Source: Lingula anatina (lineage: Eukaryota; Animalia; Brachiopoda). From it: a stretch of 64,000 bases of DNA. A program made the position numbers and the translations under genes. Positions within the stretch are counted from its first letter, which is position 1; the number at the start of each line of letters is the position of its first letter. The notes under the pieces were generated by a model, which was given only the letters and a program-made list of their open reading frames with translations, did not search any database and was not told where the DNA came from. Positions 4,169 to 60,252 of this stretch are shown here, piece after piece. The DNA lies in contig CM120643.1 of NCBI GenBank assembly GCA_051362555.1, positions 1,178,001-1,242,000 of the forward strand. The letters are read 5' to 3'.

Positions 4169-4751
4169 ATGGCAACAGCACAGATATTTCCATTTGAAAT
4201 ACCACGGAATGAAAAAGAAAATTATTTCCGCATGCACCTGCTCTTAGAGCATGCAACGGACGTGCTTCGAGATGTTCTCAGGACTCAGCTAAAAGCAGCT
4301 TATCCGGGACTGTTTGATCCCAGTAAAACTGACAAACTTTTTGACGTACTTGACAATCTACAAGTCAAACATACCTTACTGCTATTGAAAAATAGAAAGG
4401 TAAGAAACTCGAGTCAAATGAAACTCCTGTACCCCTCTGGCACCCCTTCAACAACTGTGACAACACAGGACTTAGATATTACACTTGCAGTTGTTTTATT
4501 AAGAAACATCACCAATCTGAACCCTCATGCTAAATGGGATAACCCACCAGCTACCGACACCTCCATAGAGGCCAACATTGGGAGAGTGAAGACCTACCGC
4601 AATCAGCACTCACATGGACAGCGTCTTGGCATCACTGACACAGCATTTCAGGCAGAGTTTAATGCTCTCAAGCAAGTCCTGCTGTCACTGTCCCCAATAT
4701 ATACCAGTGATGATTACGACAAGCTTCTTATTGTGCCCCTGGATGCTAAAG
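4169..4751 (+). CDS. Exon: DZIP3/hRUL138-type HEPN domain
   Basis: ENYFRMHLLL...DLDITLAVVLLRN...DTSIEANIGRVKTYRNQHSH, with RxxxxH at 4598-4615. Acceptor TTTCACAG ends at 4158. Phase-1 donor G|GTAATC at 4752. Confidence 0.85.
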
Positions 4752-7700
4752 GTAATCGAGCTTTGTAAAACAGCGTTTGGCGAGTAACAATAAAATATAA
4801 GAGTCAAAGGTAATTGATTTATAATGGTCAACATCAGCGTATACACACGTAATAATATTGGTTTGCAATTTGAAAAATTGTATTTTACCTAATTTTCTTT
4901 TACCCCTTTTCTTAATATTATGCTTTAGTGAGCACATAGTGTTTATACACTGTAGTGCATTTTTGTTGGTCCGCCGTGAAGATATTTCTTAGAAAGAAAT
5001 GTAAGCGTTTGTGATATTTTGAAGCTCTAGGTAGAACAACATAATTTAGTTTGCTTTACATGTTCGCCACCAAGTGCGTCATTTTTTTTTCGTTTGTCTG
5101 TCTGTCTGTTAGCAACATCATGCACATTGTGGACTGCTTTTGATGAACTTTTGACAAACTGTTGGCAGTGGACCAAGTAACTAAATTACATATTGCTTGT
5201 GAACTTTTTGTTTATTAATTGGTTAGTTTTAATTACAAATTGAGAGGTGAGCTGCATTGGCTATCTATGCTCCTTCGGTTCGTTTTTAGTTTTTATTGAC
5301 ATCTTTTTATTGTGTAATTTTCTATCAACTATAAATAATTATGTGAATTGTAGCATGTTTGTTATGATTGTGTTTATGGCATTCATTTAATATTTCCAGT
5401 TGCCCCATGCCAGCTCTTCTCTGTACATCTACCAAGAAAACTTCCTGACCTTAAAGGCCGCGAAGAATTGGTACAACTAATACAGCAGTATATTGCAGGT
5501 GAAACCCGACTTGTTCTTCTAACGGGGATGGGGGGCATTGGTAAGACATCGGTGGCTATCGAGGTCGGACATCGCGAGGAAAATGCACTGTACATTGATA
5601 TGAGACAAATCACCGACCTTGAAACTATCAAGTTATCTCTAGCCCAGCACTACCACCCAACACGACCCCTGATAGATTTATACAGTGATTATCAAAATAT
5701 ACTCATACAAACTTTGTCTAGTTTAACTTCAGACACTGTTATCATTTTTGATAACAACGATGAGGTTATTAAGTCAAAATGGCAGGACTTTCACAGCTTG
5801 CTTCAGAATATTTTAAATTCATCAAAGCATATTACTTTGTTGTGTACCAGCCGTGAATCATTCAGCCTCAGGTCGCATACCACGACTGTCATAATCGTAT
5901 CTCCCCTTGGTAAGGCACCCTCCATTGATATCCTTTGGGAAGGAAAAACCGCCAGTCCCACTGTCAGTGAATCAATAGCCCTAGGTGAAATAGCAGAGAA
6001 GTGTGGGGGAAATCCACTCATACTGAAATTATCATCAGCTCAACTCAAGCAAAAAACTGCACAAGAAGTATTGGATAGGATGAACAAAAATAGCATTGAA
6101 GGCTGGGGTAAGTACGCAGAAGCAGCAACATATTATAAGAAATCTCTGGAAATCCAGAAATAAATTTTTGGTAAAAAGACCCGGTGTGAGGGGAAGGGGA
6201 TGGATGTCAGCCATAATATTGCAACGTGTGGTAATATCACATGTGAATGGAGTGCACTACGTTATTGGGTGAACAAAATTATTTTTATGTCGACAGGTTG
6301 CTGCAGGAATAAATACAACAACATCCAAGGCATTTACTGGGACAGGGGTGAGAAATTTCTTTTTTGGGTTTTTGGTTTTCCTTGATTGCACAGAGGGGAG
6401 TTCACTGCCGGTGTGACAGGAATAGAAGTCTAGGTTCCAAGTGATTTTTTACTGGTTTTCTTTGCTCTGCCGGTGCGTTGTGTTAACTTGCCAACAGTGG
6501 TGTAATTTATTCACCCATGTGTGCTCATACATGTAAATTACAATGTATATATAAAACACTTGCATGTGTCAATCGACATGGTAATTTAGTGATTTGCAGG
6601 GCTACCACGACTGACAATTATGTACAGAGTTACTACTTAATTGGGAATATTATTTTTTACCAAGTAAATTTTCTACAAAATATTTATTTTTTCTCTTACT
6701 TTTTTTTAAAAATCCAAAACTGAGGTGTCACTCCATGTGTAGCCAAGTGTGTTACCTAATTACTGCACAACTCACGAAACAATTAATGCATTCAGTTGCA
6801 TGTTCTGTGGTCAGAAATGTGAGGGGTGGTCTTTTTGGCAATTTCTGCCCTTGAATAAAAACGCATGGGTTTGGTGATGAGGCCAGATATGGACGGTAGA
6901 TTCCGTGTCTGCCGAAGTGTACGAGAGGCATAAAACGAAGATTGTGCACTGCCTAGGATGGAAGCAGGGGGTGGTAACGTCTCTGTTTGGGGAGCATATC
7001 ATGTCGGTGCCCAGGACCAGTTGTTTTTTCTAGGAGGCAACCTTAACCAGGATTCTTACAGAGACATTCTACAGAAAACAATGCTTCGATTGGTAAGAGT
7101 CATCTTCAGGAACAAATTTGTATACCAAGACGACTGCGCAACCACATCGAGCTCGCAAAATCACTATTTTTCTTCAAAACCAATGGGTTCAGCAACTGCC
7201 CTGGCCTGCAAACTCTCCCGATTTGAATCCAATTGAAAAACTTTGGGCAAAAGTAACTCACAGATTTAATAGCTATGGTCATCGGTCGGTAAATAGTGAT
7301 GAACTGCGACAGGCAAATATCACTGCGTGGAATTATATCCCCATCCAAACTCTAAAAAACGTGGCACAGGGTATGCCATGTAGGATGAGGGCGCTGCAAG
7401 CGGCTGCTGGAGGTCATACCCGTAATTACTGACTTTTCATGATTAACTGTAGTGAATTCTTTGACTGTGTAACATATCACTTTCTTTAATATCTTAACTT
7501 AAAGTTAATATTGACATCAAGCTGATGACATGGTTTTCTGGGGGTGTTCCTTTCTTTTGAATGGCATCTTATGTCAGATGTGATATTATTGACCAAAATT
7601 TCTCACAACAGAAGACTGGATGTTTTTATCACTCAGTGACATACTTTTTTTGATGAATCAAGCCAAAGAATATTTAATCAGCACTCAAAAATAACAATGA

Positions 7701-10700
7701 TAAAAAATATTCCATATTAAGTAGTAACCCTGTATGTCAACAAAATTTGGAGCTCATGACTGAATTGATAAGCTACCTCAGATAGTCGTTGAGTCTACGA
7801 TTGGATGCTAAACTCCAAGTTACATAATTTTACACGCCCCTTTTCAACCTGTATAATTACAGCATATAGCTATTGATACTTCAATTAACTCATTTTGATA
7901 CCCGTCCCTGTCGTCCTGTGTAAATGTGAATGAAAATTATGTTCGACAGCAATATATGTCCTACAGCTGGGATGTCCTGGTGGGACAGTAGATCTAAAGC
8001 CCCCGTCACACTGCGCTTGCAACCTTTTGGCAACCTCTTTGCAACCTTAGTCGCAAGGAGGCTGCCTTAGGTTTAAAAGTGGTCGCATAAGGCTGCTAAC
8101 AGGTCGCCTGCGATCGTTGACATACGAAGGCCATTTTTGTGTACCGACAACCAGTGCGACTAACTATGAAAAGGCGCTCAGAGCTAATATTTCATTTCTG
8201 CACTGCCAGACCAGGTCCCTGCTTCAACCCCTTAGTGCTGATTGCCAAGCGGGGAGACCGCAGGTATCGTTTATAAAGGGCTGGTATGGCCCCGGACGGG
8301 CTTGAACCCGCGTCCTCCTGCTCCGGAGGCGGACACTCTAACCACGGTTGGTCGTAAAGCCTAGGTCCCAACTACGTTTTGGGCGCACGGTTTTTATGTA
8401 CCTTGCATCCGGCTAAGACGTAGCTAGATCGCACGTAACGTCTGTTAATCATGTCGAAAAGTTACTACGTGCTGTTGCCTGTAGCAGTGTCATAAATTAC
8501 CGGTATATTGAAACTGAGGGTCCAGTCCGTGTAACACAAAGTCCGCACTCCATATAGTTATAACATTAAGGTTTAGTCTGATCATAGTGGATCAAAATCT
8601 AGGAAAAAGCTCACCTGTTCAAATGAATGGGAAGCGGACTCTCTGATATGGGGGACTCTTTGTCACGTTACACCTGTTCTGTTTATTACCAGATTTTAGA
8701 GCAAAGTTTGACCGCTTATGTGCCAGTGGTGCAGTCCCAGTTTACAGACAGCGAGTAGCTATTGTTGGTCCCTACGGTGTGGGGAAGACTCATCTCGTCA
8801 AGCGCCTCCTTCAAGAGGAATATGACGAAGAAACAGACGCATATACACCTGGTGTGAAGATATACCGCCATAGGTGCATCGTCCATAAAGACGGCCGATC
8901 TTGTTGGGTCAGAGGGAAAGGTAATGAGACTTAGAAAACATATTTGACACTAGGGTATTTGGGAAGGAAAGAACAGAATGGAGCAAAATTAGGGGCGCTG
9001 TACTTTTCCATAAGCTCTAAAGTGGTTAAGATTTTTCCACCACGTTGGGCTGGAAGACGAGGGGGGTACCATCAGTGCATATTCATGTATGGCTATCAAC
9101 AACTTTGCTGAAAAAGTGCTCGTTCAAAAGCTTTGTGGGTTTCTTGTCAATATTCAGACACCTGCGATCGTGACAGTTTCATTTTCCAAGATTCTTCGTA
9201 TTTTTGTAAACCTTCGTCTGGTATATTTTTCAAACCAGGCTCTAGGCCCTATGGCCCCTATAAGTCACACAGCTCCATAACCTGATGCATCTTGGGTTAG
9301 AAAATATCATGTCAATATCAATGTTCTTTTCACAATCCTCAGATGACCCAGAAGATCATCTGGTGCAACACATGGTAATTGGAATCCAGAATCCAGACGC
9401 ATTCCGCCGGGTAGACCAAGTGGACGAAGAGCCACCAGTGAAATCCCGAAAGGTGGAGAAGGTTATTTATAGCAACACTCGGGAGTCAGAAACAGGTACA
9501 TGTTCCTCACTTACGGTTTTTTTGATAGAACAGAAACAAATTATATTTCTTTACTTTCCATCCATTTCGTAAGAGTTCACTTAATATCGTAATATCTGGG
9601 GAATGTATGAAACAGTATTCTTTGGTATAAGACAGTGTGAAATATGTTACGGACAATGAACTATTTCATTGTCACCACTCTTTCAGCAATCAATGGGAGC
9701 ATTCACATCGAGATGAGTCAAGGCCTAATAAGGCCGCTACCTAAATATGGCGGACCTACATGTAAGGAAAACCGCTTAATCCTGTAATGGTCTCCCCGCC
9801 TCTCACTCGGCTCCCCCACGCATCGTCCCTCGACAGGTTGAATTGAGCCGAGATTTAATTAGTGAGCCCCTTCAGGGACGACGCGCGGAAAGGCGTGTGA
9901 GAGATAGAGAGACCATTAACGATTTAAGCGGTTTCCCTTTCATGTAGCTCCGCCATATTAGGTAGCGACCTTACTAGACCTCGGCTCTTCTCGATGTGAA
10001 TGCTCCCAATGTTACCTAACTTAAATATACCTTAAACCACGCTCATAAGACCCTTCCAAATTAATCGTATTTATAGCAGAGACGGCCAGTTTCAAAATTT
10101 TCCATCCGGACCTTGTGCAAAAAATAAAGTCAGTTGCTCGTGGAGAACCTGTGGATCCTGAGAAACAGATTACAATTTGGGATTTTGGTGGCCAAGATGT
10201 CTATTACACCACTCACCAGACTTTCCTCTCAGAGCAAAACATCTACTTGTTGGTGTTCCGACTTGATGTAAACCTCGATACCAAAATCCCGGTATACAGA
10301 GGAGAGAAGACGGTGAAAGGTATGATGAAGATTACATTTAGATGCATTTTTTAGGTAACTGTGAAAGCCCATGTTAGATGTTTTATCTGTAAGCACTAAT
10401 ACAAGTGCAATTATCCTTTTGTTTGAATTGGAAACGACGACCGTTCCGTTGTTTGCGCCTTCTGTTAATAATCAACAGAACTGGCCGTGTTATTTTTGTT
10501 GGGGAAATAAATAAACAGTCTTCTTTACCTTAATAAACAGTCTTCTTTACCTTAATGTTTCTTTTACATTTTTCAGAGTTCATAGTGTATTGGTTGAACT
10601 CTATCCATATGCACACAGTTAGAAAATCAAAAGAAAAGAAGAGCGTCATCCCACACGTTTTGATTATTGGAACTCATAAGGACAAATTGGCTTCAGAGGT

Positions 10701-13700: not shown

Positions 13701-16700
13701 TGTCATTCTCGCCTATTTTACCATTAAGCACGCAGATGTTTATGTCTGTTAGTAAATTTAAAAAGTGCGTTCCATGGCTATTTGTATGCTCATCTAAAAT
13801 TTTACGCGGTTCTATTTCATCAACAGCCTATCTCGATCTCGTCTGCAGGCGCATTGAAGTCACTACAAATTATTATATTTCACAAATTTTGGTAACCATA
13901 TATATCTGTTGCAAGCTTTAAAAATGCTTTTCAGTGTCAGTTTTAGGAGCGTGCTCTCTGGGGGAAGGTAACATACACCCAAGCAAAAGTTGTTTCTCTC
14001 TGTTTGTGCTTTGGAAAACAACAACTCCTTTCATCTCAGAGTCAAGGACTTTAACGTCGTAGGTTGATACCAATCTTTTCCGTAGTAAACAGCCAACCCC
14101 ACCCGATCCTCTATGCGCATTCACATGCAGATTGGTGCGGGTTTTTATCAATCCAGAAATAATCATCAATTTGTAATTCATCATTCCCTTGCAAAAAATG
14201 TTTCGGCGAGGCAACAGATATCGTAATCTTGTTGTTTTACGAGTGTTTCACGAAATAATATTGGTCCTTGGCCACCCGTTGCAGTTTCAAAAACCGAGCG
14301 TTAGACACCCCTGCTATTCTGCGTCTTCCTGGCGCCACCGGCGTTGTCCTTGGCACGGATCTGCTTTAGATTGCTGACAATCGTTTCTGACCAAGCGTCC
14401 ATTCACTCATCTATAGTCTTTTTCACATCTTATCTGTGTCAGAATGGTGCGCTGTAATACATGTCATTATCTCCATCATCACTATCGTTGTCATAGGCTC
14501 TATGCACTTGTGCGTGTGCGATCACCGTATTGCCGTGATATATTGTGTCGTTTACAGACATCATTTTGGTGTTAAAAGTGTTCAGTGTGTATAGGTAGAG
14601 GTCGATTTGGCGGTGTCACTAGATATAGTCAGATTTTTGTTTTGTTTTGTTTTGTTTTTCAAAGAATATTTTTAGAAGCTTCCAATAATGTTGTCAGCCT
14701 AGTCTTGGTTAGTTCATATGTATATAACTTAAAAATCAGAATTCTTCGTAGCGTTCGAATCACATAAAATCTTAATATGGCGTAAGCCGTACACGACCCA
14801 GTCTACTGTTACTGACATGCGCATAAATGTGTCTAATACTAGTACTAGTGCAGCATACTTTTAAAGTTTTGACATCAGAGCACAGACATATAAGACAGTT
14901 AACAGGTAAGCCAAAATATCTGGATCTATCATAAATGAAAACTTAAAAATTAAGACTCCTTACTTAATCTTTAAGATCGCTTCATACCAGTTTTAGTCTT
15001 GAATTGCACTTAAAGACCAACTCAGACCACTAATGTACACTGTATGTCCGACACCACTATAAGGACTGCGCAATGGCTACACCAAAATCAGTTTTAAAGC
15101 AGAAAGGGGCTTGTGTTGTGGCATCGATTTTCGATTGCAAGGTATTCTTACTTCAAAATTCAATCTCCGGGTCAGCCTCTTTTCGTCTTTGTCTCGTCTG
15201 CACGAGGTGACGTCAGCCCAAGGCGGGAAAGGCAGCTCCAGGCGGGACAGATCTGTGACGTTCGCGACATGTGGCTTTCAAATATGGAAACGCCCCAGGC
15301 AAAATGTTGCCGAACACGCCCCTAGTATGACTACAGTCAGAATTGCTGATATGGGTTATATAGAAATCATGATCGAGCTGGCAATACTGAAATCTAGAAC
15401 TTAAGGACCTACTTGTACCCAGAACACGGAAAAGGTGACTGATTTTGGTTGACATGATTCGGTGTCGAGATAAGCGTCTTCCGCTCCTTCCTTCTCTGGG
15501 ATTTTATTATCTCACACACACAAGCAGTCCACTTTCCTCCCTTTTGTTTAAGTGAAATGTACTGTACTTGAATGTGAGTGTACACTGTAAAGGATAATGT
15601 TTTTTTTTTTCCAAAGGCAAACTTAACATTTTAATATGAAATTGAACAAGATTTTAAACCCCATACCGTGTTATTTATAGGTAGCCGCTGATGAGATACT
15701 TGGTCAACTCTTGGACTATCTGGAGGACAAGCAGGAACTCGCAGAACACGTCTACCGTTGTTTTGCCATAAGTAACTTGGCCGACGTTGAGGAGTTTGAT
15801 GAAATAAAAAGCGAGATCGAGCATCTTTGTGGCTATAGCAGAGACAGAGAAGCTGGCCGCCAAATGCACCCAGTGAGATGGTTCCAGTTGGAATTGGATT
15901 TGGCAAAGAAGAGTGAAGAAAGGCCGATCATATATATTAAAGAACTGCGTGATATGGCGCGCTTAGTTGGAATCCGTGACGCGGAGTTAGATGAAATGTT
16001 TATTCCTTACCATCATCATCTGGGAGACGTCCTACACTTCAAAGTGGATGGACTGGAAAATATCGTCATATTGGATCCACAGTGGTTAGCAGATCTGTTT
16101 TCTGCCATCATGACCCCGCCTGTTAGTAAAAGTGGAAAGGATCGCCTCGATTACTTGAAACGAAGTCTGGAAAAAGGAGAACTGAACGAGGAGGTGTTCG
16201 ATGTATATCTGCAGAAGGAAAAGATGACCGACATGAAAAACGAAGTGATTCAACTTATGGAGCATTTTGACCTGATGTTGGACATATCTAAATCAGTTCA
16301 AAATCCAATGCTGCCGTCTGGAAAGAGAAAATTCGTCGTGCCTTGCATGCTGAAATCCAATGACCTGGTGAAATATCGGCCTCCCGAGAAGGCTCGAGAA
16401 ATATCTTTATTCATTTCATTCCCTCACGGCTTCTTTCCTCCAGGGCTATTCCATCGTTTGATCATCCGTCTGCTTAGGAAGTATAAACCTTACCATTGTG
16501 TAAATGGCATCCCAGATGTTGGTTTTGACCACGCCTCCTTCCGTCTGGAAGACAAAACATCTGTGCTTCATCTCTTCACTGCAGAAAAGGACATTGAACT
16601 GGTGATAACGAACGCTGCCGGCCCACCAAAGCCTCACGTATATTTTAATACACGACAAACAGTTGAAAACGAGTTGTCTTATCTACAGAAGACATACTGC

Positions 16701-19700
16701 CCCAGAATGCACTTTGGCTACTATATCCGGGTAAACCACGGCAAGATCCCAATAGAAGCAGAGACCGTTCTAGAAAAGGATGTCATATGTGTATGTGTAG
16801 AGAATGCGGAAGTACCGATTGATTTGAGGCCATATCGTGTTTGGTTCTCAGGTAAGCAGTTAAAAAACATAATACCTGCTGTTGCCGTAAGTGAACAAAA
16901 TAAAAGTTTAAATTTTGGTGATATGTGACTTGAACCATAACTAGATGTAGCTAGCTTTTATACCTTGAAATACCGACTGTTATACACTCTGCACAATACA
17001 CAAATAATAATTACTATGAAAAGATATGTATGTCAATTATTTCAGGAGAAGAAGCAGTGAAGAAAGCCCCACTCGTGGCTCGAATGCGTCTTTCAGAAAG
17101 CAACAGTGTCAATCATGAGCAAGGTAAGGTTGTGTGCTGAACTCTAGCCTTGGCGTTGTTAATAAGCAAGTCTCGTAAAATTAAAATTATATGTTACCGG
17201 TGACAGAAATGAAGATTATTTATCCAAACTCTTGCGTTTAGTCACTACAATAAAACAGCGTTTTATTTCTAGTACACAACTCATATGATTCACCTTCTTC
17301 CACGTGTTTATAAGTGGGAAATTGTGGTTTTACATTTATACATTGACAGTAATGTTGAACATAAATGACCTTGATATCAAGCGTTCAATTGTGTGTGTGT
17401 GTGTGTGTGTGTGTGTGATTGTGTTTCCAAGAATTTAGTGTAAATGATATAAAAGTATTATTTAATGCCTATAAAGTGTGATTATCTCGCATTTGCCAAC
17501 CAGGTAGGACAGAAGAAAAAGAAAAAGGGCTGCCCCACAATCAGTCACTAGAAACTGCTTCTGCTCAAACATCAAGTACGTACTGATCTGGTATTGATCG
17601 TGGTCACTGACATTGGAATGTTTTAACTACCTTTATTATATGTTGGTAAAAAATGCACCATTAATAACTGAACAGAGTATAGGGGTTTACAAGAGTATTG
17701 CACCCGTTTGCTATAAGGTGAACAACAGCTGGATTTGTAAGGTTTTTCAAATAGTTTCTTTATGAAAACTGGTAAAGTCAAGTTAGTATCTTCACGACCG
17801 GTTAACAGACCAGTGCTCATTTATTATGTTAGTACTAATATTTTGTAGGATGGCCACGTGATCTCAATATTGGTGAGAATTCCTGTAGCATGGAGCCTTC
17901 TTTAAACTGTTCTTTTGCTTAAAGATGCATACGAAGTCAATGTTTTGCCACAAAAGCCGACCAGATGCCATTGTTACGAATAAGCAAACTTCTTTAGTCT
18001 TTTTCACATCTATTTTATTTGCTTGTCATTGAAATTGTCACGTAGAAACTGAAATGAACAAAATACATCAAATTAAGAAATTATCCTTAAATTATGTTAC
18101 AATTACAACTTATAAAGTTCTTATTAACTGTTTAAATTACTAAATGATTCATAAAGTCTTACCTCATTGCGGGAATTAGTGACTTTTAATGATCAGAACA
18201 TAACTAACTATAAGCGCGTGCTCTAGTCAAAAAAGTAAAACGCTATCTCCACCGATGTGCATAACAGCTAAGACGGGCCAAAACCTTAACATGGCTCCCC
18301 TAAATTGTGAAAGCAATTTACACAATATACACTGTTTACCTTATCATTACGTATAAAAAATATTTGCTCGGAAATTATTAAGAATTACCGTACCTTAAAC
18401 ACTTTTAAGGAACATCAAAACTTACTGTTAATTACCGTATTAAAACATAAAATACTTTGCAATCCCATAAACACAAATAGCTCGACATGTAACTGTCTTT
18501 AGAAAACAAAAGTGTTCATTAAATCTACACAAACTGTAGCATAGAATCATAACAAAACTGACATTATTGTCACAGTTAACAGTTATTTTGGCTCCTCGAC
18601 GGGGTCTTCTCCGGTCAATAAAAGAATTAACTTGTGCACTGGTCTCTCATATGTAGAGTCCCTAACTTTCAACTTGACCTTACGCACATATCCATCTGCA
18701 CTTTGAAAGGTTTCTACTATGCGACCAAGTGGCCACTGATTTCTTGGTGCACTGTCATCTATCATGAGAACAATATCTCCAACTTGTACATCTCTATGTT
18801 GTTTGATCCACTTTTTTCTCTCTTGTAATGTAGGAAGAAATTCCTTTCTCCACCTGTTCCAAAATTCATTGGCTAGATATTGAACATGTCGCCATCTTCG
18901 ATGAAGGTATGTGTCTTTCCTTATGAAATTCCCAGGTGGTGGCATCACGACCTTAGTTTTCAGGGTCAGGAGCTGATTTGGAGACAAAGGCATTGGAGAA
19001 TCTGGTGACTGTGTATCAATGTAGGTCAAAGGTCTACTGTTAACTATGGCTTCTGCCTCAGCTAACAATGTGGACAAGGAATCATCATCTAAACGGTCAC
19101 TGTGAGCTGTGAGAAGTCCTGATAAAGCATTTCTGGCTGATCTGATCATCCTTTCCCACACGCCTCCCATATGTGAAGCATGAGGAACATTCATTTCAAA
19201 CTGAATCCAGTCACAATGGTCTTTCAGAAGTTCTCTCCTGATCTTGTCCTGATCCATATCCATAAAGGCAGTTTCTTGCTCTCCCTTAACTCCAATGAAA
19301 TTGGTTCCACGGTCTGCTCTGAGTAGACGTACTGGTCCACGCCTGCATACAAAGCGTCTGTAGCAGTTAATGAAAGAATCTGTGCTGAGTGAATATGCAA
19401 CTTCTATATGAATAGCACGTGATGCTAAACATGTAAACATTGCACCGTATCTCTTAATCTGCTTTCTTCCCTCCTTCACATAGAATGGTCCAAAGAAATC
19501 TACTGCACTGTAGGTGAATGGAGGTGCTGGTTCCAGTCTGTCAGCTGGAAGATCTGACATTTTCTGACTCTGTGGGTTTGCTCGAAGCTTACGACAGGTC
19601 ACACATTTCCATATATATGATCCAATCTTGGCACGGCCAGAAATTATCCAATAACCACTAGCTCGGACTTCATTAAGAGTAATGCCACTTCCTGAATGTC

Positions 19701-22700
19701 CGCATCGTGTATGATAGTGGTCAATTATGAGATTTGTAACGTGATGATCCTTAGGCAGAATCACTGGGTGTGTAAGCTCTCTGGGTAGATTTGCCCTCTT
19801 TAAACGACCACCTACTCTGAGTAGTCCATCTTCACATAAAAATGGGTCTAGGCGGTATAGTGAACTGGTTTTCTTGATTTGTTCGTTGCGATATCTTGCC
19901 TGTTTTCTCTCTGTGTGTTCACTGTTATCTTCTCTGTTAATTGCTTTCAGTATTTCAATTTCCTTCTCAAATGTAACAGTCTGTGTTGACTTGAGAATGA
20001 TCTTTTCTGCCACTTGTATTTCTTGAACATTCAACGGTTCATTGCTGGTCTCAACTGTGTTCTGCTGTGTAGATTTCCTGTTCTTAGCTTGTTTCAGCTT
20101 CTGTATGAATCGTAAACACCACGTAACAACTCGTGTTGCTCTGTTCCAGGAAGAAAACCTTTTCAATACATCAGACAAGTGATCGTGGTTGGTTTCTACT
20201 TTAGTAGCAAATACATTGACTTCAGATTTGCGTACTTCTGGGTCATCTGGTGCTAGTCTGAATTGGGTATCAGTGGTAGATAGTGGTTCATCAATGCGCA
20301 GAAAGTCTGGCCCACTCCACCACTGTTCATTCTGTAGTAGCTCTGTCACACCTGTTCCCCTGGAGGCTATATCAGCTGGGTAGGGTTGTCACTGGACTTA
20401 ACATGCCTCCATTGCGATGGCTGACTGACTTCTCTAATTTGTTGTATTCTATTTGCTACAAAGACATGAAATCTCTTAGCATCATTATTGACATACCCTA
20501 GAACAACTTTGCTGTCAGTCCAATACACATGGGTGATGTCCTCATACTCTAACTCCTTGGCAAGAAAGGTCCCCACCTTTATAGACATCACTGCTGCTGA
20601 CAACTCTAAGCGTGGGACTGTAACTGGTTTAGAGGGAGCTACCTTGGACTTGCCCAGAACTAATGTGGTTGCTATTCTTCCTGTGTTGCTTTTAAGTCTC
20701 AAGTAACTGCACTGACCTAGGCCTTCTACACTGGCATCTGAGAAGTGATGAAGTTCTGCAGTAGTCACTTCACCAAAATCATTTGGCTTATAGCACCGTG
20801 GTATATTCAACTTGGTTAAGTTCAGCAAATCTGAGCGCCATCTTTCCCATCTGCATCTAATACTCTCTGGCACTTGATCATCCCACTCTGCACCGTCTCT
20901 GCATAGCTCTTGGAGAATTTTCTTACCGGCAAGGATGAAGGGTGAGACGAGGCCTAAAGGGTCAAATATGGAACTTACAGTGGAGAGAATTCCCCTTCTT
21001 GTTAATGGCTTATCATTGATCTGGACCTTAAACTGAAAACTGTCCGCTTCTACACACCACTGTACTCCTAAAGCTGGGCATATTGGCAATGTGTCTCTGT
21101 TAAGGTCAATGTTTCTCATTTCTTTGGCTCTCTCTGACATTTGGATTGTATTCATCACTTCACGGTTGTTTGATACTAGCTTGTGAAGTCTTAGGTTACC
21201 TTTGTTCAGCAGCTCTCTTGTTTCACTAACAAGACGTATAGCTTCTTCACTTGACTCGATGCTCTTGAGTCCATCGTCTACATAAAAGTCATTCTTAAGA
21301 AAGGCAATGACGTCTGGTGAATACTCATCTTGGTAGTCCTCTGCTAGTTTCCTCAGTCCATACAATGCGCATGCTGGTGAACTTATCGCTCCAAATATAT
21401 GAGACGTCATTCTGTATGTGATGGGATTACTACTGAGGTCACCGTCTTTCCACCATAGGAACTGTAAAAACTTTCTATCCTCTTCTTTCACTTTAAACCT
21501 GTGAAACATGTTCTCCATGTCACCCATGATTGCTACTGGCTGCTCTCTAAACCTCAATAAAACACCTATGAGCGAGTTATTCTGATCAGGTCCTTTCAAC
21601 AGGCAGTCGTTTAGCGCAACATTTTCATGTTTTGCACTGGCATCAAACACCACTCGTAATTTCTCACGTTTCTTGGGGTGATATACACCATGATGTGGTA
21701 AGTACCAACCTCCATCTTCATGAGGTGATTCTTCTGCATAGCATTTATCTATGAGGTCCTGCATAAAACTGTTATAGTGCTCATAATACTTCGGGTTGTG
21801 GATTAGCCTTTTCCTTAGCTGCTCTAGCCTGATCTCAGCTGCTGGTTTGTTGTTTGGCAATGCTGGATGTCCATCTTTAAATGGTAGTGGCATCTCATAA
21901 AAACCCTCGTTGAAATGTATGCCTTCCTCCATAATCTTCATGAACTTCTGGTCTTGAAGGCTTAACTTCTCATCTTTCTGTTGGTCGAAACCTTGGTCAA
22001 AGAGACTGCAAACCTCAGCGGGGCTGATCTCTGTCACTTGTGTTCTAAAGGCAAAGGCATGTGTTCCAAAGCTCTTGTTCTCATCTATGGGTCTTGATTT
22101 GTCCACTGGCCCTACTATACCCCAACCTAGGTTACATCTGTATGCATATGGCTCCTCTCCTCTACCATGTATGTACTCCAGACCTCTAATGGCTTTCATA
22201 CAGTTTACTCCCAACAGCAGTCCTACCTCTATGTCTGGGCGATAAGGAGTAATCTTATCAGCAATTGAGTGCAAGTGTGGCCATTTCTTAGCAGTTTCTG
22301 GTCTGGGTATCTGTGATCGCTTAACTGGAATGGAGTCTCTGGAGTATGTATCTGGGAGCTCAATCAATGTCTCTTGGTTCAGACCTCTCACAACAAGTCC
22401 TCTAACTTTCCTGCTCGGGACGGTTTTTTCTCCAAGTATGGTTGAAAGTCTGATGTCTACATGCTTCCCTTTACATTCGAGTTCACTGAGGGTCGAGGAC
22501 TTTACAAAGCAGGCATCTGACTGCTCGTCTAGTACTGCATATACCACTGAATAAATGTCTGGATTATCCTCGTGGTGTACTACAACTGGCACTATCATGG
22601 AATGCACATTCTCAGAACTGTGGGTGGTATGGCATACAGCTGCTCCCACTACTTTACTAGTGTAATTGTCATCATGTAGAATTGTTGGGTGATAAGAGTT

Positions 22701-25700
22701 ACATTTTTGGCATTTCATTTTACTTCTGCATTCATGTTTTCTGTGACCATATGCAAGGCACCCAAAACATAACCCATTATTCTTTATAATGCCGATTCTT
22801 TCATCCATTGTCTTTTCTTGCATTTCTGGGCATTGGTGAAGTTTATGTTGTTCCTTGCATAATATACACTTGTGAACGTGTCTTTCGTTGCTGGATGCAG
22901 AGGTACTAGACAGTACTGTTTGTGCTGGAACTCTTCTCCTTGGTGCTGGTATAGGTCTCTCTGGTGGCGGTGGAACCTTTCCAAAAATGGGGTCAGCCAA
23001 TTTTCGTGCTTCTTTCTGCACAAAATCGACGAAAACCTGAAAGGTTATCTTCTGTCCCCTTTCCTTCCTTTCATATACTATGCTTCTCCATTTATCATGC
23101 AATTTGAGCGGCAGCTTCGTCATTAGCCTCTTAAGGTTATCGGGATACTCGAGGACTGGAATGGCATCTATTTCTTTTACTGCATATTCACATTCCCTTA
23201 AAAATATGCCGTATTTGTCTAATGCGACATAATCATCATGCTTTATCACTGGCCACTGTAAGGCACGGTTTATATACGATGTCGCAATCTGTTCTTGGTC
23301 CCCATACCTTCTCTCAAATTCCTTCCATGTGGCCTTGAAACCAATGGATGCATCTAAGTGAGCGAATCCTAGCGTAATTTCATGAGGCTCACCTCTGGTG
23401 TATTGCAGTAGATAGTTCAGTTTTTCATCGTCAGAGTCGCATGTTTCTATGATTCTACTTTTAAACTGTCTCTTAAACAGCACATATTTGATCGGGTCAC
23501 CTTCAAATACTTGAATCTGAATTCTTGGTTTACTGAGTTCCTTTGCTATCGTAGTTTGCTCACACAAAGTGAGTGGGGCACAAGATGTTAGTGCATTTTT
23601 GGGCGTAGATGTCTTTTTTATATTTGACTTTGTGAAATTAAAATGCTTTTCCAACTCACACATGGTTTGGTCTATATCCGACTCTACCCTTTTTAGTTCT
23701 GCTTGCAGCAGTAACATTTCCGCTTGTGTTGCCATCTTTTCTAAATACTATGCTGATCGTCTTTCACTAAATCGTCGCTCAGTTTCTATTATCTTTCACT
23801 AAATCGTCGCTGAGTTTCTACTGTTACGAATAAGCAAACTTCTTTAGTCTTTTTCACATCTATTTTATTTGCTTGTCATTGAAATTGTCACGTAGAAACT
23901 GAAATGAACAAAATACATCAAATTAAGAAATTATCCTTAAATTATGTTACAATTACAACTTATAAAGTTCTTATTAACTGTTTAAATTACTAAATGATTC
24001 ATAAAGTCTTACCTCATTGCGGGAATTAGTGACTTTTAATGATCAGAACATAACTAACTATAAGCGCGTGCTCTAGTCAAAAAAGTAAAACGCTATCTCC
24101 ACCGATGTGCATAACAGCTAAGACGGGCCAAAACCTTAACAGCCATTATATAGTTTAAAATAGTAAATTTAGAGAAATACCAAAAGACATTGTTTAATAT
24201 TACCCAAAATGATATTTGAACGGATTTTCCTGTTAGCTTTCTATGCTGTATATCTATGGGGCAGATAAGTAGGTCAGGTAAGTAGGTTAAATCTACAACC
24301 AAAAGTTTAAAGAAAGGAGCTTTTTATGGTTTATAGAGCGTTTTATTTGGTTCATCCCTTGGTATGTCGAATTTAGTTAGAAGTGGTTTATGTGCATTAC
24401 TTGAAATCAACGCTCCACAGACACTGGGTTTATATGCACCTTTAACTCAACCACCGTAAAGCTAATTCACAGCACGGTTCAAATTTCCTGAGCCTTGGCA
24501 GCATAAAAAGACGCCTGTCGTCTCTGGCAGTAGTCTGCTTCATGTTGTTTTATGGACATCACCAGTGTCCCCCATCCTTCTGCAAACCCTGTATACAAGT
24601 TAACCAAGCATACCACATATGGGATACAGCTAAAGCCTCCAATTTCAGGGAAACAATTTCTTTGATATTTTCATTTTTGAGTTTTTTTTCACCATGATAA
24701 CAACTTGACATCTAGAAGGGCGTTAAACCTACGATGGCACCTCTTATTGTGCGCATGGATGAAAATCCATCCCTTGTTACGTGACCAATAAACCGCAAGG
24801 CACTTTTTACGAACGGGTCCCTCGTGCCCCATAGCTCCCTATTCATACAGGTGGTACAATAATTTTGTCGCCCCCACCCCCTGTAGATCGGGCATTTATG
24901 TACTCTGGTATGGTCCACTTAGTTTGATCTTTAATCTTAACAGTTCTTCCAGAATGCTATATGCAGTCAAGGAAAACTAGTTTTTTTTTTGGTTCATAAA
25001 TCACTTTTACCAAATTCTTAACACTGTACATATTCTTAACACTGCACATAATAACTCATTAACCTTCTCATTGGAGGATAATTTATAATTGTAGGCTCAA
25101 GCATGGATGATATGACCGAGGTCAAAGTAAAACCTTGCTCAGTTGACCTCTTCCAGGAGAAGGCATTCGATCATAAAAATGTTAGTGGCCCCGTTTTATT
25201 CTGTTTTATTTTTATATGCAGGTGTATTTGTTACCGTATATAATGTTCAACAATACAGTAGCTTTGTCATGAAAAAGACATTTATTACAACACCAACTGA
25301 ATGTTTCACACTTTATCTTGTTGGTGCACCAAGAGAAGCATGTACTGAGGCAATAGCAGTGCAAGATTACACTTAAATTGTCAACAACCCTTTTGAATAT
25401 TGCAGGTCTACAAAAACTACAGAGAGTGGAGAGGGAGAGCTGTGATCATCAACAATGTCAGCTTTGACAATAACTATCACCCCGACAGAGAAGGCACAGA
25501 GATTGATGTTAAACGTCTGGAAAGTTTATTTCAGCAGCTACATTACCTGGTGTCCAGGCATGACAACATGACTGCTAGGGTTTGTAGATCGAATTTAAAT
25601 GTTCACTTAGTCCGCCGCATATTTTACCCTTTAGATACAGTTGGTAATATATCAACTATAAACTATGTGATGGTAACATATTAACTCTTTCTGTCATTAA

Positions 25701-28700
25701 GTATATGATAACTCGTGCATTTTCATATGTGATTATGGGTTAAGGATGTAAATATGTGAATAATTTATTCTTTAACTATGTTAAAAAATTTGCAAGACTC
25801 CGACCGTTGCCAATTCATTATGATGACAGAACTCTTCCCTCAGAGAATTACAAACACTGATCTCGCTGATGAGATCAGAAAAATGAATTTCTCTTTGACA
25901 ATATAATAGTATCAAAGTGTACTGTCATTAACCTATATTGACCAAACATTGCATTATACAGGGTATCAGTCAAATAGCCGAACGTGAGTCAAGAACTGAT
26001 CACAGTGTTTACTCTTCCTTCATCATGGTGATCCTGAGTCATGGTGGAGAGAACACGGTGATAGGCACTGACGGTTATCATATAGGGTATGACCAAATGC
26101 TTGCACACTTTGAGGCCTCCAAGTGTCCTACGCTGAAAGGTTGCCCCAAGATGTTCTTCATATCTGCGTGTCAGAGTCCCTGTCGTAAGTGTCCATCTTC
26201 CACATGGGGCATTGGTGTGAACCATACTTTGTGAAACAAGTTTTAATTTCATGAGTAAAGAGTGAGAGGTTAAATTGATTCCCTGTTTTCTGCTTTGATG
26301 TTTAAAGCTATAATGCTGTATAGTACTAGATATGTACTTTGCCCTCTTATGCGAACGGAGGGCGTTTCTATTATTATTATTACATATATAGTTGGTTGAT
26401 ACTGCTCTGTCAAAATATAGTTCGTTTGTGTATTTCATGCGATGTGTTGTTCAATTTTGGCCATTATAAAGTAAAAATATTTTTGTCAATTACAACTTGG
26501 GAATCGCTGCTTTATACTTCATTGACATGTCATTGTCTAATATTTAACAATTATCCTTTATTTCACAGAAGGTGAGGATGAAAGTGCGTCAGATGTAAAA
26601 ACGAAACCCAAGCAAATGACAACAAAGCCACAAAATACTTCCTCAAATACCGAAGACCGCAAAATAGCAGAAAAGGCCGATATGATATTAGTTACTTCAA
26701 CGACCACAGGTAATATTGTGAAGTCTGCTTGTTCTTTTTCAGCGGTTTCCACTATTAATACTTTCTCTTGGTCGACAAGAATCCTTCACAAATAGCATAT
26801 AAAATAAGTATAATTGGATAAGGTATAACAGTCAACCTTCTGTTAAAGCACCAACATCTTTAACGGTTTGATATCCGGCCGTCAAACTTAGGTTTGCTGA
26901 ATTGACGTTTCAGGTGACAAGTCTTGGCGATCTCCTACACATGGCACGTGGTTCATTCAGAGTCTGGTGAGAGAGCTCTCGGAAAGAGCATGTGACACCC
27001 ATCTACTTGATATATTGACACAGGTAATCACGCATTACAACAGTATATCATTTTATAAGAGTAGAGAATAAAGATTTATCTGTTGTTAATTTGTAAACAG
27101 GGTAATCAAAAATAAAAACAAAGGGTGACCGCCGTCTCTATCAACATCACATCCGGGTGTATCGGAGATTTTAGGCAGTTTAGAATCAAAGATGTGCATG
27201 ATGCAGGATGCAATCAGATTGCGTTTCAACACAGACGCAATCAGGCTTCCCATACATAGCTGTCTACCTGTCGAATCTGCAAGAACACCAGCGACGTTTG
27301 ACTTAAATTTCTTGCACCAATAACAAAAGTTGGTCAGGTCTATTAAATAGCGGTATGCTTAACTGGATTGATCTAATTTGAGCGGTTCTAAATTTTAGGG
27401 ATTTCTTTAAAATTACGACTCTTAAAAGGATATTTGTATTGTCTAGGGTATCATTGATTTGGTTCAAAATAAAGTCTTAATAATAAATGCTGAAACAACA
27501 TGTATTCCGCTGAAATATGGCTGATGGCTAAACATGTTTAGGTAAATTTATGAGATGCATTGATAGGAGAATTAAACTTTTTTGTAGATTTGATATAAGA
27601 GAAAATGTGGTATATTCTTAGTTTCAAAAATGCTCAGCTTTTTTATTAATAGAGCAACTTTCTGAACCAATCACATTGTTGATAATGAAAACAGTGAATA
27701 TGGAAAATCGCGAATAAAATGTTTTTCTTTAAACTCAGAACATGCGTAACATTTCAGAAAGAACAAAAACCGAAAAAAAAAACATTTTTGAATGGGAAAT
27801 GGGGATTGTTCCTTTATATGTACATGTAGAAATCGAAAGAAAAATAAAAAAACATTAGTTAATGAAATGTTTCAACATGAAAGAGAAGATGGCACATCAA
27901 TTTCTTGTTCTGTGCACTGGTTAAACAGAAAACAGAGCATAAATATAAACATAAGTAAGGTCTTCATATAAATGAAACATTCTGGGGTATACATGTAAGT
28001 TATGAAAAAATATAAGATAACTGGTAAAATTTATTATCATAACATTTATCTAAAGAGGGTTTTTACACAGAGTGTCATAAGCCTAAATGTGCTTTGCCAA
28101 GCATTGTCACTACATAGCATGACAATATATATCATAAATGAATGAATTTATATAGCTGTTCTGTTAGTGACCATGTCGCGCGGGGACTCTCTTACATTTC
28201 AGCCAGTCTATTAAAACTGTCAATATCTAATTGTACCGGTCCAGGCAAGTGTACCGCTAGATCTGGAAAAGGTTTAAGTGACATGTCCTTGTAAGAAACC
28301 ATAACAGCTAGACAGCTTTATACACGACTGTCATTGACGCGGTAAACTTACGTAAAGCTTTGCCCATAAGATTGTATATACCACTAGTAGACTCCTCTGA
28401 TGTCTTTGTTCAGAGAGAGGACTCCTTGTGGAGAGAGAAATGATCATCTCGTGCGTGTTGAATATAAAGGGAAGGGAGTTTTTAATCTACCAGTAATCTG
28501 CCAATGTTTCTCAATTCACATATTGCCTCTAAAAGAGGGCAAAAATACAAATCTTAAAAATGTCATATTTTGAACAAATATATTGATTTTCATATACATG
28601 TTCTCCGTGTTGATATGTTACCTAGTAATTGTTTATCTTCAAGGTGAACGGGAGTGTGTCCCAGATGACAACTCAAGACGGCTGCCGACAGGTTTCAGAA

Positions 28701-28751
28701 ATAACAAGATGCACGCTAACGAAGTGCGTGTATTTCTGGCCAGGCTTCTAA
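4169..28751 (+). CDS. Predicted multi-exon HEPN-(NB-ARC)-ROC-COR-caspase fusion gene (1399 aa; 1163 aa without the NB-ARC exon)
   Basis: Coding exons 4169-4751, 5400-6107, 8693-8920, 9343-9495, 10077-10319, 10577-10698, 15681-16851, 17046-17123, 17504-17575, 25095-25180, 25406-25579, 25962-26184, 26569-26709, 26914-27023, 28644-28751. All introns are GT-AG, phases are compatible, and the total is 4200 nt ending in TAA. The start is in a strong Kozak context (ACCATGG). Confidence 0.75.
5400..6107 (+). CDS. Exon: NB-ARC/STAND ATPase (NBD+HD1, no winged helix)
   Basis: LPDLKGREEL, Walker A GMGGIGKT, Walker B VIIFDNND, sensor-1 LLCTSRE, GxP motif CGGNPL. Phase-1 acceptor TTTCCAG (5399). Phase-1 donor G|GTAAGT at 6108. 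The unspliced read-through stops at 6161-6163 inside a TPR remnant. Confidence 0.75.
6625..7732 (+). mobile_element. Degenerate Tc1/mariner DNA transposon
   Basis: TIRs CAGAGTTACTACTTAA.../...TTAAGTAGTAACCCTG with TA on both sides. Transposase fragments GGNVSVWGA, YQDD and WPANSPDLNPIEKLW are split by frameshifts. Confidence 0.9.
8195..8348 (-). mobile_element. tRNA-derived SINE (same family as the copies at 31.0 and 37.1 kb)
   Basis: The reverse complement matches GTGGTTAGAGTGTCCGCCTCCGGAGCAGGAGGACGCGGGTTCAAGCCCGTCC and the body of the other copies. Confidence 0.85.
8693..10698 (+). CDS. Exons 8693-8920, 9343-9495, 10077-10319, 10577-10698: ROC GTPase domain
   Basis: G1 GPYGVGKT (8767-8790), G2 YTPGV, G3 WDFGGQDVYYTTHQTFL (10178-), YWLNSI and G4 GTHKD. 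The first exon has no in-frame ATG, so it is absent from the ORF track and needs an upstream phase-1 exon. Confidence 0.9.
9695..10007. mobile_element. 313-bp near-palindromic MITE with 3-bp TSD (PIF/Harbinger-like)
   Basis: GGGAGCATTCACATCGAG...CTCGATGTGAATGCTCCC with long imperfect inverted arms and AAT on both sides. Confidence 0.85.
11090..14790 (-). mobile_element. Decayed LINE (APE endonuclease and linker), interrupted at ~11600-13900
   Basis: Endonuclease remnants (CLAETF; HRGSGGVGCLLRK) at ~13918-14300. Linker peptides VLARWQRDYQKLFN and LNGPIRRDEV at ~11150-11500. Confidence 0.7.
11600..13345 (-). mobile_element. Ginger/GIN1-like intron-containing Gypsy-type integrase remnant
   Basis: Spliced pieces YLRENKYPPEASLKEKGVIRR | MHSSVIG | HLGRDKTLDKLQKKYYWRNMAEDVRKFIACCAICQK | IGIDLIGPLKET | GFPQTMLSDQGREFNN, separated by GT-AG introns. 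No RT or gag is nearby. Confidence 0.75.
15681..16851 (+). CDS. Exon: end of ROC (G5, FAISN) plus COR domain
   Basis: PVRWFQLE, HHHLGDVLHF, VILDPQWLADLF, LMEHFDL, KFVVPCML, FPPGLFHRLIIRL. Phase-0 acceptor at 15680. Phase-1 donor G|GTAAGC at 16852. Confidence 0.9.
17046..17575 (+). CDS. Two short symmetric phase-1 linker exons (17046-17123, 17504-17575)
   Basis: TTTCAG/G|GTAAGG and CAG/A|GTACGT boundaries with open hydrophilic frames of 78 and 72 nt. There is no homology support. Confidence 0.6.
17390..17417. repeat. (TG)n microsatellite
   Basis: Direct read. Confidence 0.95.
17972..24141 (-). mobile_element. Full-length BEL/Pao LTR retrotransposon in an intron, antisense to the host gene
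   Basis: 320-bp LTRs 17972-18291 and 23822-24141 (TG...CA, identical by eye), TSD GCCAT, and PPT AGGGGAGCCA next to the 3' LTR. Gag has three Cys/His knuckles, followed by protease LDEQS, RT YVDD, RNase H FSDAS and integrase. Confidence 0.97.
18583..23735 (-). pseudogene. BEL/Pao gag-pol polyprotein with a single frameshift at ~20380
   Basis: ORFs 20367-23735 and 18583-20349. The conserved NPADIASRG is restored by removing 5 nt. Confidence 0.9.
25095..28751 (+). CDS. Exons 25095-25180, 25406-25579, 25962-26184, 26569-26709, 26914-27023, 28644-28751: caspase (peptidase C14A) p20+p10
   Basis: RGRAVIINNVSF, PDREGTEIDVKRL, VILSHG, CPTLKGCPKMFFISACQS, ADMILVTSTTTG, SWRSPTHGTWFIQSL, LLDILTQVN, TLTKCVYFWPGF-stop. 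Confidence 0.92.
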
Positions 28752-37598: not shown

Positions 37599-37604
37599 AA
37601 TGAC

Positions 37605-42500: not shown

Positions 42501-43112
42501 CAAATGTTTCTGAACATAAATACCATACATATAATAATGATACATAGAATTAATAATTGTTTTGTAGTGTTAATTAATCAGGGAACATTAGGGAGGGACA
42601 GGGTGGGTTTGAGAAACTTTATGAAATTCACTAAAAACTCTTCTCTCCTGAGCATGTACTGCTAGGTTGAAAATTTCTAAGGAAGTGAGAGAGAGTGTTC
42701 TTTGTTTTTGGTGAAGCTGAACTCCTTATGATTCTGATTGGCTGATCATAATGAGACTAGGTTGTACTGTCCAATCAGGTTTTGCTTTACTGGTATCTGA
42801 CCAGTGTCACTTGGTAGTAATTAACTTAACAGCGTGAAATACAAAGCGGAGACACCCTGTCTGTAATTATGGAAGAAACATCTGGAGCTTATCTTTCTAT
42901 CAACATATCTTAGTCCCTGGGAGTTTCCCTGGGCATCTTACATCACATTAATACCCTCATCACACATAAATCCCTTTATTGTGACCAATGAATTATATTT
43001 ATGTAAAATAGTCATCTAGGCAACCACACCTGGCAACATGGACAATCGCCACAGATGGAGATGACACATTTCCTCGTGCACCAAACTCCCTCCCTGACCA
43101 ACCTTAATATTC

Positions 43113-46100: not shown

Positions 46101-46550
46101 AAATTGATGGGGGGCAACTTAATTACCCCAGGGTCCAACTAGCTCCGGTCTCCCTTACGCCAGACAAATCTAGAAGATTAAATGCATGTTCATTTATTTC
46201 TACCTATTGTGACAATATACATGTGAGAATACCATTTTTTATATTGATTTCAGATATGTACCTGTGAACGGTCATTCTTTCTCTTTTTGTAATAATTCCT
46301 TTTCAAGTATATTACATTTATACATGATATTGTATATTTACAAACTATGAAAACGGCAAATTACTCTATAAACCAACATAGGAAACGCCTTGTATTTTGA
46401 TCTGATTATTGATTTTCAATCACACAATTTCTAAATCTAAGTTGTCTTATCCAGGTAAAGAGACTAATAATGCCATTTTTTACAATATCACTAGCACATA
46501 TTACTGAATTATAATATTTGTAAAAACTTAGTCTTTATCACAAGTAGACA
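43113..46550 (+). pseudogene. Caspase paralog remnant
   Basis: 43113-43295 is homologous to exon 25406-25579. 44159-44242 plus ~45817-45840 is homologous to terminal exon 28644-28751, split by a ~1.6 kb insertion. Intron and 3' UTR homology runs to ~46550. The region matching ~25790-28150 (catalytic exons) is missing. Confidence 0.88.

Positions 46551-60220: not shown

Positions 60221-60225
<5 letters not shown>

Positions 60226-60252
<27 letters not shown>
60226..60252. repeat. (TG)n microsatellite
   Basis: Direct read. Confidence 0.95.

Follow-up and report, generated by a model that had tools for sequence, protein, structure and literature searches.

The 64,000-nucleotide window analysed here, from the brachiopod Lingula anatina (assembly GCA_051362555.1, contig CM120643.1, positions 1,178,001 to 1,242,000, forward strand), contains locus LOC106162424, whose COR exon matches XP_013395173.1 and in which exons for a HEPN RNase, an NB-ARC ATPase, a ROC-COR GTPase and a caspase follow one another on one strand. 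Our preferred reading, to which we give a probability of about 0.5, is that the main product is a HEPN-ROC-COR-caspase protein of 1162 amino acids (aa), made with the NB-ARC exon (exon 2) mostly skipped, a two-ended death effector that arose from a young fusion of a receptor gene with a ROC-COR-caspase gene. The original prediction had joined all four modules into one protein with two different nucleoside triphosphatase (NTPase) switches; the modules are real and a single frame through them is possible, but RefSeq skips exon 2 and lists the caspase as a separate protein.

Gene structure and domain content

Rebuilt from the window, the gene has 15 exons on the forward strand (4169-28751, Table 1) that join into 4197 nucleotides, i.e., 1398 aa followed by TAA, and all 14 introns are bounded by GT..AG. 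The frame and splice sites proposed originally are thus retained, while the proposed length of 1399 aa is not, being either 1398 plus the stop codon or the result of the alternative acceptor of RefSeq isoform X1. Every motif quoted for the modules is recovered in the model (RNQHSH at residue 144, GMGGIGKT at 237, GPYGVGKT at 456, WDFGGQ at 591, THKD at 670, LSHG at 1230 and ISACQS at 1272), and Pfam searches with single exons match all of the modules, HEPN_DZIP3, NB-ARC, Roc (7e-6 and 6e-8), COR-A and Peptidase_C14. Exon 3, the first ROC exon, contains no methionine, as had been noted, which rules out an independent start there, and a tblastn search with 173 proteins finds no further module relative upstream of it, leaving the HEPN and NB-ARC exons as the only upstream coding partners found.

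The class of each module can be assigned from its motifs. The ROC domain carries G1, G3 and G4 boxes and is followed directly by COR (Pfam on the exons and on the RefSeq protein P0001, together with the motifs), as in the ROCO family. Judged from sequence, the HEPN domain belongs with the DZIP3/hRUL138-like RNases by family profile and by its Rx4-6H motif, RNQHSH (RNQLSH in the RefSeq haplotype), the Rx4H form being one described in PMC9646362; and the caspase (C14A) has SHG, C1275, DREGT and SWR, that is, the His-Cys dyad, both subunits and the S1 arginines. The canonical QACxG pentapeptide is absent from this caspase, which has SACQS instead, a variant common to the paralogs P0002 and P0025 (SACQG in P0024); the caspase of P0002 aligns along its full length with caspase-8 (1.9e-37). 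Exon 2 encodes a nucleotide-binding domain with Walker A, Walker B, sensor 1 and GxP elements, and its alignment-based structural model (mean predicted local distance difference test score, pLDDT, 64.5) matches the NB-ARC folds of NRC4, ZAR1, CED-4 and Apaf-1, the single-sequence fold (pLDDT 39) being unusable. A winged helix with the MHD-type latch of NLR/STAND proteins is lacking in exon 2, and the C-terminal sensor repeats of such proteins (LRR, TPR or WD40) are represented by a broken TPR fragment only, which is intronic in the spliced form.

Exon 2 measures 708 nucleotides and is in phase 1 at both ends, making it a frame-neutral cassette: when it is skipped the frame stays open and gives the 1162-aa HEPN-ROC-COR-caspase chain. 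Read-through of donor 2 gives a 448-aa HEPN-NB-ARC product, and read-through of donor 9 an 885-aa product, the one modelled by RefSeq. Since several alternative joins are open, in-frame joining does not by itself single out the 15-exon form.

Origin of the receptor front

A search with exon 2, restricted to proteins of 413-2000 aa, matches 13 proteins, 11 of them from Lingula, with HEPN in 10 and TPR families in all of these 11; the best match is 80% identical, and none of the matched proteins contains exon 2 itself. The HEPN domain of the window is 86-94% identical to that of the four close HEPN-NB-ARC-TPR paralogs having one, and exon 2 is 76-81% identical to its close paralogs. In the latter, the NB-ARC domain continues into a winged-helix motif, Y/F-D-L/F-HPLL, and then into many TPRs, whereas the match of exon 2 ends at about residue 428 (about position 6103), some 80 residues short of that motif, and enters a single TPR (G-K-Y-A-E-A). 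We read the Y/F-D-L/F-HPLL motif as the putative counterpart of the MHD latch, which holds NLRs off (as described in 10.64898/2026.09.02.748808). The TPR remnant is 73-85% identical to TPR repeats at 38.6-39.5 kb and has acquired a stop codon and a 1-nucleotide gap; AATAAA signals lie at 6159, overlapping the in-frame stop (6161-6163), and at 6308.

The layout of exon 2 before the deletion is preserved at 37598-39575, in a broken copy that blastx aligns with P0010-P0014 in shifting frames. Five TPRs of this copy hold the sequence GGTAAGT, formed by G-K-Y codons, and the same donor is used at 6107. A deletion thus removed latch and sensor and placed beside the ATPase a ready phase-1 donor whose phase suits the ROC exon. 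Exons 1 and 2 evidently come, on these comparisons, from the Lingula HEPN-NB-ARC-TPR receptor family (XP_013412328.1, XP_013393438.1), with which they share the HEPN-to-NB-ARC splice; unlike those receptors, the window copy retains neither the winged helix nor the second helical region, has kept almost no TPRs, and runs into ROC-COR instead.

Origin of the ROC-COR-caspase part

A profile built from P0001 and P0002 gave 11,064 matches among 1.84 billion representatives, 150 of which were listed. By local profiles, the 169 proteins compared (isoforms and queries included) comprise ROC-COR-caspase (8), ROC-COR-HEPN (11), HEPN-ROC-COR (4) and caspase-ROC-COR (2) layouts; 17 of the 169 were checked with Pfam and 10 were looked up (from Lingula, Owenia, Exaiptasia, Branchiostoma, Mytilus, Pecten, Potamilus and two others). 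ROC-COR-caspase is a single RefSeq model in three Lingula paralogs (P0002, P0025 and P0029) and is also found in Owenia, Branchiostoma and Exaiptasia, while clusters combining HEPN, Roc and COR have 128 and 103 members, mostly molluscs. ROC-COR-caspase and HEPN-ROC-COR are recurrent combinations in invertebrates. As COR and caspase are joined in three Lingula models, and the unusual SACQS is kept even in the distant paralog P0025, exons 3-15 look like one ancestral gene. Their source would be among the ROC-COR-caspase proteins (Lingula XP_013401300.1, XP_013412607.1 and XP_013407220.1; Owenia CAH1786849.1; Branchiostoma XP_035660786.1), which differ in having other N-termini (Bcl-2 in Owenia) or none annotated, and not HEPN. 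An Owenia caspase with a ROC pro-domain has been described (10.1101/2023.12.11.571055).

The wider family shows further layouts. The Owenia protein CAH1786849.1 (P0030) carries Bcl-2 (Pfam 5e-23), ROC-COR and caspase in one chain, and its close relative in the ROC-COR tree, Lingula XP_013407220.1 (P0029), has a stretch that is Bcl-2-like by eye and below the 1e-5 cut-off; the two may represent a conserved Bcl-2-ROCO-caspase class. Lingula XP_013379953.1 (P0050) combines this ROC exon with NHL repeats, the sister ROCO genes P0003 and P0004 end in HEPN and not caspase, and the older model P0008 has a caspase fragment in front (QADQG, without the catalytic cysteine); modules are swapped at both ends in this family. 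Other layouts are Ras-ROC-COR-Death, tandem ROC-COR, GT4-ROC-COR-GT4 and DED-Macro-ROC-COR-Death (P0114, P0037, P0102 and P0082, respectively).

Annotation and transcript reads

Skipping of exon 2 is supported by RefSeq, in which isoforms X1 and X2 (XP_013395172/3) both splice HEPN straight to ROC, omit exon 2 and stop in intron 9. The two isoforms differ at one tandem acceptor, and isoforms differing in this way usually reflect read support. XP_013395173.1 also bears out the proposal that the ROC exon has the HEPN exon as its partner on the 5' side. For the linker-to-caspase splice, the exact 17575/25095 (exon 9-10) join is carried by an older unannotated model, P0027, which is otherwise odd, lacking exons 5-7 and 14, and so lends it weak support. 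The receptor-family ancestry of exons 1-2 is shown, as are the deletion, the donor derived from a TPR, the compatible frame and the intact catalytic motifs; the HEPN-to-ROC splice (RefSeq) and the linker-to-caspase splice (the older model and paralogs) are taken from annotation.

RNA reads from four of nine runs, chosen by species label, were mapped to 3300-10900 only (about 6% of three runs and 25% of one), and most of the mapped reads are repeat-derived, with 90-95% likeness. The sole GT..AG joint listed in this region is 4751/5400 (exon 1-2), with three reads in one run; two further reads at this joint have paralog-like letters, and the join is common to at least ten paralogs. No reads are listed at 6107/8693, where depth on exons 3-4 is near zero in these four runs and too low to count against the join. 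Of the junctions proposed for verification, 4751/5400 is therefore seen, as a join common to paralogs, and 6107/8693 is not listed at this depth. A short repeat in intron 2 (8170-8345, also at 31011-31161 and 37078-37222) reaches a one-strand depth of 5000-7000 in two poly-A runs, an abundant transcript from elsewhere carrying this element.

It is also possible, though unlikely, that the locus is a split unit, in which an 885-aa HEPN-ROC-COR mRNA ends in intron 9 and the caspase is either expressed separately from the methionine of exon 10 or orphaned by a retrotransposon, with a 448-aa HEPN-NB-ARC stub perhaps also made. RefSeq keeps the two parts apart, the accession next to XP_013395172/3, XP_013395174.1, being a separate 174-aa 'caspase-8-like' protein (exons 10-12, no small subunit); intron 9 holds a fresh BEL/Pao element with identical long terminal repeats (LTRs), antisense to the gene in this haplotype, which may or may not disturb splicing; an AATAAA stands at the stop of the exon 2 read-through; and a near-identical 174-aa caspase model, P0023, lies on another scaffold. 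However, with exons 13-15 intact and in frame, the missing small subunit of the RefSeq caspase seems to reflect sparse reads and not biology. The phases of exons 9 and 10 match, the paralogs are fused, and from exon 9 up to where the first LTR ends the forward strand has no AATAAA or ATTAAA.

Constraint on the NB-ARC exon

Constraint was assessed with the paralogs compared as proteins only. The end branch of exon 2 measures 0.21, against 0.053-0.086 in five close paralogs and 0.028 for the HEPN exon. After dropping changes common with distant paralogs, exon 2 has changed at 7 of 73 invariant and 8 of 78 variable columns, whereas the pooled paralogs have changed at 9 of 374 and 28 of 453, respectively (p=0.008 for the excess at invariant columns); the HEPN exon shows no change at 143 conserved columns. 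Equal change on invariant and variable columns, together with the long branch, forms a pattern of relaxed constraint, although the changes are mostly mild, the tree position of exon 2 does not resolve, and the exon may simply have branched early. The proposed second NTPase switch is not upheld by these data, since the NB-ARC exon is a deletion remnant without winged helix or sensor, shows this relaxed pattern and is skipped in both RefSeq isoforms.

A further explanation, which we regard as possible but doubtful, is that the gene mainly yields the full protein of 15 exons and 1398 aa, its latch-less NB-ARC being kept to oligomerise or to dock on activated HEPN-NB-ARC-TPR paralogs, upstream of the ROC-COR switch. 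Exon 2 is open, its Walker A and B, TSR and GGNPL motifs are intact, its donor is strong and the deletion is in frame, while the adjoining TPR remnant gained a stop and a 1-nucleotide gap within about 75 nucleotides. A suggestive neutral simulation (12-24 changes, an assumed indel rate, and rough stop and frameshift terms multiplied) leaves the frame open in about 3-16% of cases. The three reads across 4751/5400 also agree with inclusion, but the same joint is used by many paralogs and has no 6107/8693 counterpart, and the RefSeq skipping, the lack of exon 2 from every matched protein (413-2000 aa) and the relaxed pattern all argue against this form.

Other double-NTPase proteins

Double P-loops occur in 6 of the 173 proteins surveyed. 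The 1429-aa RefSeq model XP_020902336.1 from the sea anemone Exaiptasia diaphana contains HEPN_DZIP3, a short STAND ATPase (AAA_22, 1e-7; both Walker motifs present), Roc, COR-A and caspase, and has no sensor repeats; it shares both the four-module order and the sensor-less layout with the window. The modules are 24-32% identical between the two, the anemone caspase having QACRG and not SACQS, and the anemone ATPase being cut earlier, before the GxP region. A second case, P0163, combines DUF4559 (with RNEIFH), which we take to be the CXorf38 HEPN family, with a short NACHT, missed by the Lingula-seeded NB-ARC profile but recognised by the P-loop survey and Pfam, and with Roc and COR. Fusions of the CXorf38-type HEPN family to NACHT, and of DZIP3-type HEPN, have been described (PMC3710099). 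The spacing from Walker A to G1 is 219, 184 and 197 aa in the window, Exaiptasia and P0163, respectively, below the 273 aa that separate Walker A from the winged-helix motif in intact Lingula paralogs. No usable match was found for P0171 in the ESM Atlas.

In a ROC-COR phylogeny (33 rows, LG+G4, long branches present; P0110, P0129 and P0154 dropped from 36 for want of an anchor motif), the three proteins fall in three separate starred clades. A grouping of the Lingula and Exaiptasia fusions by shared ancestry is rejected (approximately unbiased test, p-AU 2e-49), and the window HEPN is 94% identical to that of an unfused Lingula paralog, which together point to separate fusion origins. Both XP_020902336.1 and P0163 are gene models only, GenBank splits the former into KXJ13111.1 and KXJ13106.1, and tandem arrays can yield chimeric gene models (as described in PMC10236652), which weakens the help that this shared order and the short Walker A-to-G1 spacing give to the 1398-aa protein. 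That a short STAND recurs could mean that selection keeps the module, or just that it is dragged along when a receptor's long exon splices at an internal donor.

Several of these observations weigh against skipping of exon 2 and against the HEPN-ROC-COR-caspase chain as main product. The haplotype behind RefSeq is another one, and its exon 2 may be different; the window has 4 substitutions relative to P0001 (885 aa), counted up to the divergent end, with 98% identity over exon 1, and probably represents a haplotype or assembly other than that of RefSeq. No reads cover the skipping joint 4751/8693 either, at the near-zero depth on exons 3-4 in the four runs. On the caspase side, RefSeq closes the ROCO gene in intron 9 and lists a truncated, separate caspase, and 6.2 kb of retrotransposon occupy the intron between linker and caspase exons. 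Exon 2 itself remains open over 708 nucleotides with all motifs intact, the deletion and a 3-nucleotide gap are both in frame, its donor agrees with the consensus at 7 of 9 positions (5-8 in the other 13 donors), and its ratio of nonsynonymous to synonymous change (dN/dS) is 0.24 against the broken copy (139 codons). Moreover, 8 of its 24 private changes are common to distant paralogs and may be ancestral, and a short STAND lies between HEPN and ROC in two other proteins. The evidence on whether exon 2 is maintained is therefore mixed.

Neighbouring array and mobile elements

The region 29261-48388 is a tandem array in decay. Besides the broken copies in Table 1, it contains a 2-kb duplication (29261-31345 and 35355-37405, 92% identical) and, at 47072-48388, a copy of the region upstream of exon 1, interrupted by the remnant of a DDE transposon. 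The caspase model P0023, 2 residues off that of the window, lies on a 678,655-bp scaffold that also bears a HEPN-NB-ARC-TPR gene (P0011), probably a second copy or haplotype of the array. Several transposon remnants lie within introns. Intron 4 holds a 320-bp imperfect palindrome (9691-10011, 76%) resembling a miniature inverted-repeat transposable element, and LTR-retrotransposon remnants with reverse transcriptase, RNase H and integrase zinc-finger matches occur at 60190-63380 and 12226-12525, both on the reverse strand.

That the gene is a dying, little transcribed and functionless by-product of array turnover seems to us very improbable. The broken neighbouring copies, the intronic transposon remnants and the near-zero depth on exons 3-4 in four runs would fit such a fate, yet 4197 nucleotides remain without a stop, the catalytic residues are all kept, the conserved HEPN columns are unchanged, and RefSeq holds two isoforms with a tandem acceptor.

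Table 1. Coordinates of the gene and of related features in the 64,000-nucleotide window
Feature	Position	Strand	Content and evidence
Exon 1, coding part	4169..4751	+	Start codon, HEPN_DZIP3, Rx4H RNQHSH, phase-1 donor; Pfam 1.4e-33
Exon 2	5400..6107	+	NB-ARC and helical domain 1 (Walker A, Walker B, TSR, GGNPL); Pfam NB-ARC 8.4e-8
TPR remnant behind deletion	6103..6182	+	G-K-Y codons give donor G/GTAAGT (slash marks the splice site); in-frame stop 6161-6163
Exons 3-6, ROC with G1, G3, G4	8693-8920, 9343-9495, 10080-10319, 10577-10698	+	Pfam Roc; identical to RefSeq P0001
Exon 7, ROC end and COR	15681..16851	+	Pfam COR-A 1.2e-21; 1 difference from P0001
Exons 8-9, linker	17046-17123, 17504-17575	+	RefSeq runs past donor 9 to a stop
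BEL/Pao LTR retrotransposon, intron 9	17972..24141	-	320-bp LTRs 100% identical; 5-bp target duplication GCCAT; Pfam Peptidase_A17, DUF1759, DUF5641
Exons 10-15, caspase (SHG, SACQS, SWR)	25095-25180, 25406-25579, 25962-26184, 26569-26709, 26914-27023, 28644-28751	+	Pfam Peptidase_C14, 8e-9 and 4.5e-14
Broken paralogous NB-ARC-winged helix-TPR exon, no 5' part	37598..39575	+	79.5% nucleotide identity to exon 2; Pfam TPR
Decayed second copy of caspase exons 11 and 15 and 3' region	43106..46549	+	Self-BLAST 79-92%; tblastn

Discussion

In the scenario that we favour, a deletion in a HEPN-NB-ARC-TPR gene would have brought a TPR-encoded donor into frame with a ROC-COR-caspase gene, and the two genes would then have fused. 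HEPN RNases and initiator caspases are both activated by dimerisation. ROC-COR works as a nucleotide-dependent dimer, according to PMC4104024. One switch could thus fire both ends, nucleotide-dependent dimerisation of ROC-COR setting off RNA cleavage and proteolysis together. As the chain has no sensor repeats, its trigger would likely be indirect, at a guess through a partner, for instance an intact HEPN-NB-ARC-TPR paralog, or through the nucleotide state. Exon 2, where included, would lack an MHD-type latch and might therefore serve as a docking or oligomerising piece rather than as a second regulated switch.

A bolder proposal, which on present evidence seems unlikely, is that a death protein with two effectors and no sensor has arisen in animals several times independently, through the joining of a HEPN-STAND front, cut before the latch, to ROC-COR-caspase, in a brachiopod, a sea anemone and partly in a third lineage. 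The full protein would then be made, its latch-less ATPase would dock onto activated sister receptors, the ROC-COR dimer would fire RNase and caspase, and in Lingula the phase-1 donors within TPRs would ease such fusions.

Parts of this arrangement have precedents. HEPN occurs with NACHT or NB-ARC receptors in corals and bivalves (as reported in PMC8260672, PMC9646362 and PMC10236652), amphioxus has shortcut fusions (PMC2575513), Aplysia a TIR-ROCO protein (PMC9334734), and ROCO exon shuffling is described from brown algae (PMC3341825, PMC11378527). The bacterial LRR-AP-GTPase-COR systems of PMC8195603 place ROC-COR, as in the window, beside variable effectors including a caspase, and the Trichoplax ROCO proteins with AAA or Ras domains in PMC4104024 resemble it in having two NTPases in one ROCO protein; as described in these sources, both have LRR or TPR sensors, whereas the protein from the window is sensor-less, with an effector at each end. 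Full-text literature searches turned up neither the four-module protein nor a HEPN-ROC-COR-caspase chain, though few subscription papers were covered and supplementary or source tables, notably of PMC8195603, may list them. Term searches within PMC4715348 and PMC7836458 gave nothing pertinent on ROC or HEPN. The architecture, proposed as unrecognised, is hence not unique, given the same module order in the Exaiptasia model and the frequency of its three-module parts.

Overall, the locus is likely a young chimeric immune gene within known invertebrate domain shuffling, the weight of the finding being raised by the independent anemone case and by the visible fusion route, and lowered by absent transcript support and by the remnant-like ATPase exon. 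If exon 2 is skipped, the gene is a further case of such shuffling, though with a domain chain that was likewise not found described. The locus shows a gene fusion in progress with a visible route, in which a deletion was followed by use of a donor embedded in the codons of a TPR; the matching anemone layout suggests that invertebrate immunity has converged on one design for coupling RNA destruction to cell death. ROC-COR serves as the switch in LRRK2 and DAPK1, its output still being debated, and natural proteins with a dimer-dependent RNase on one side of ROC-COR and a dimer-dependent caspase on the other would allow that switch to be read out directly.

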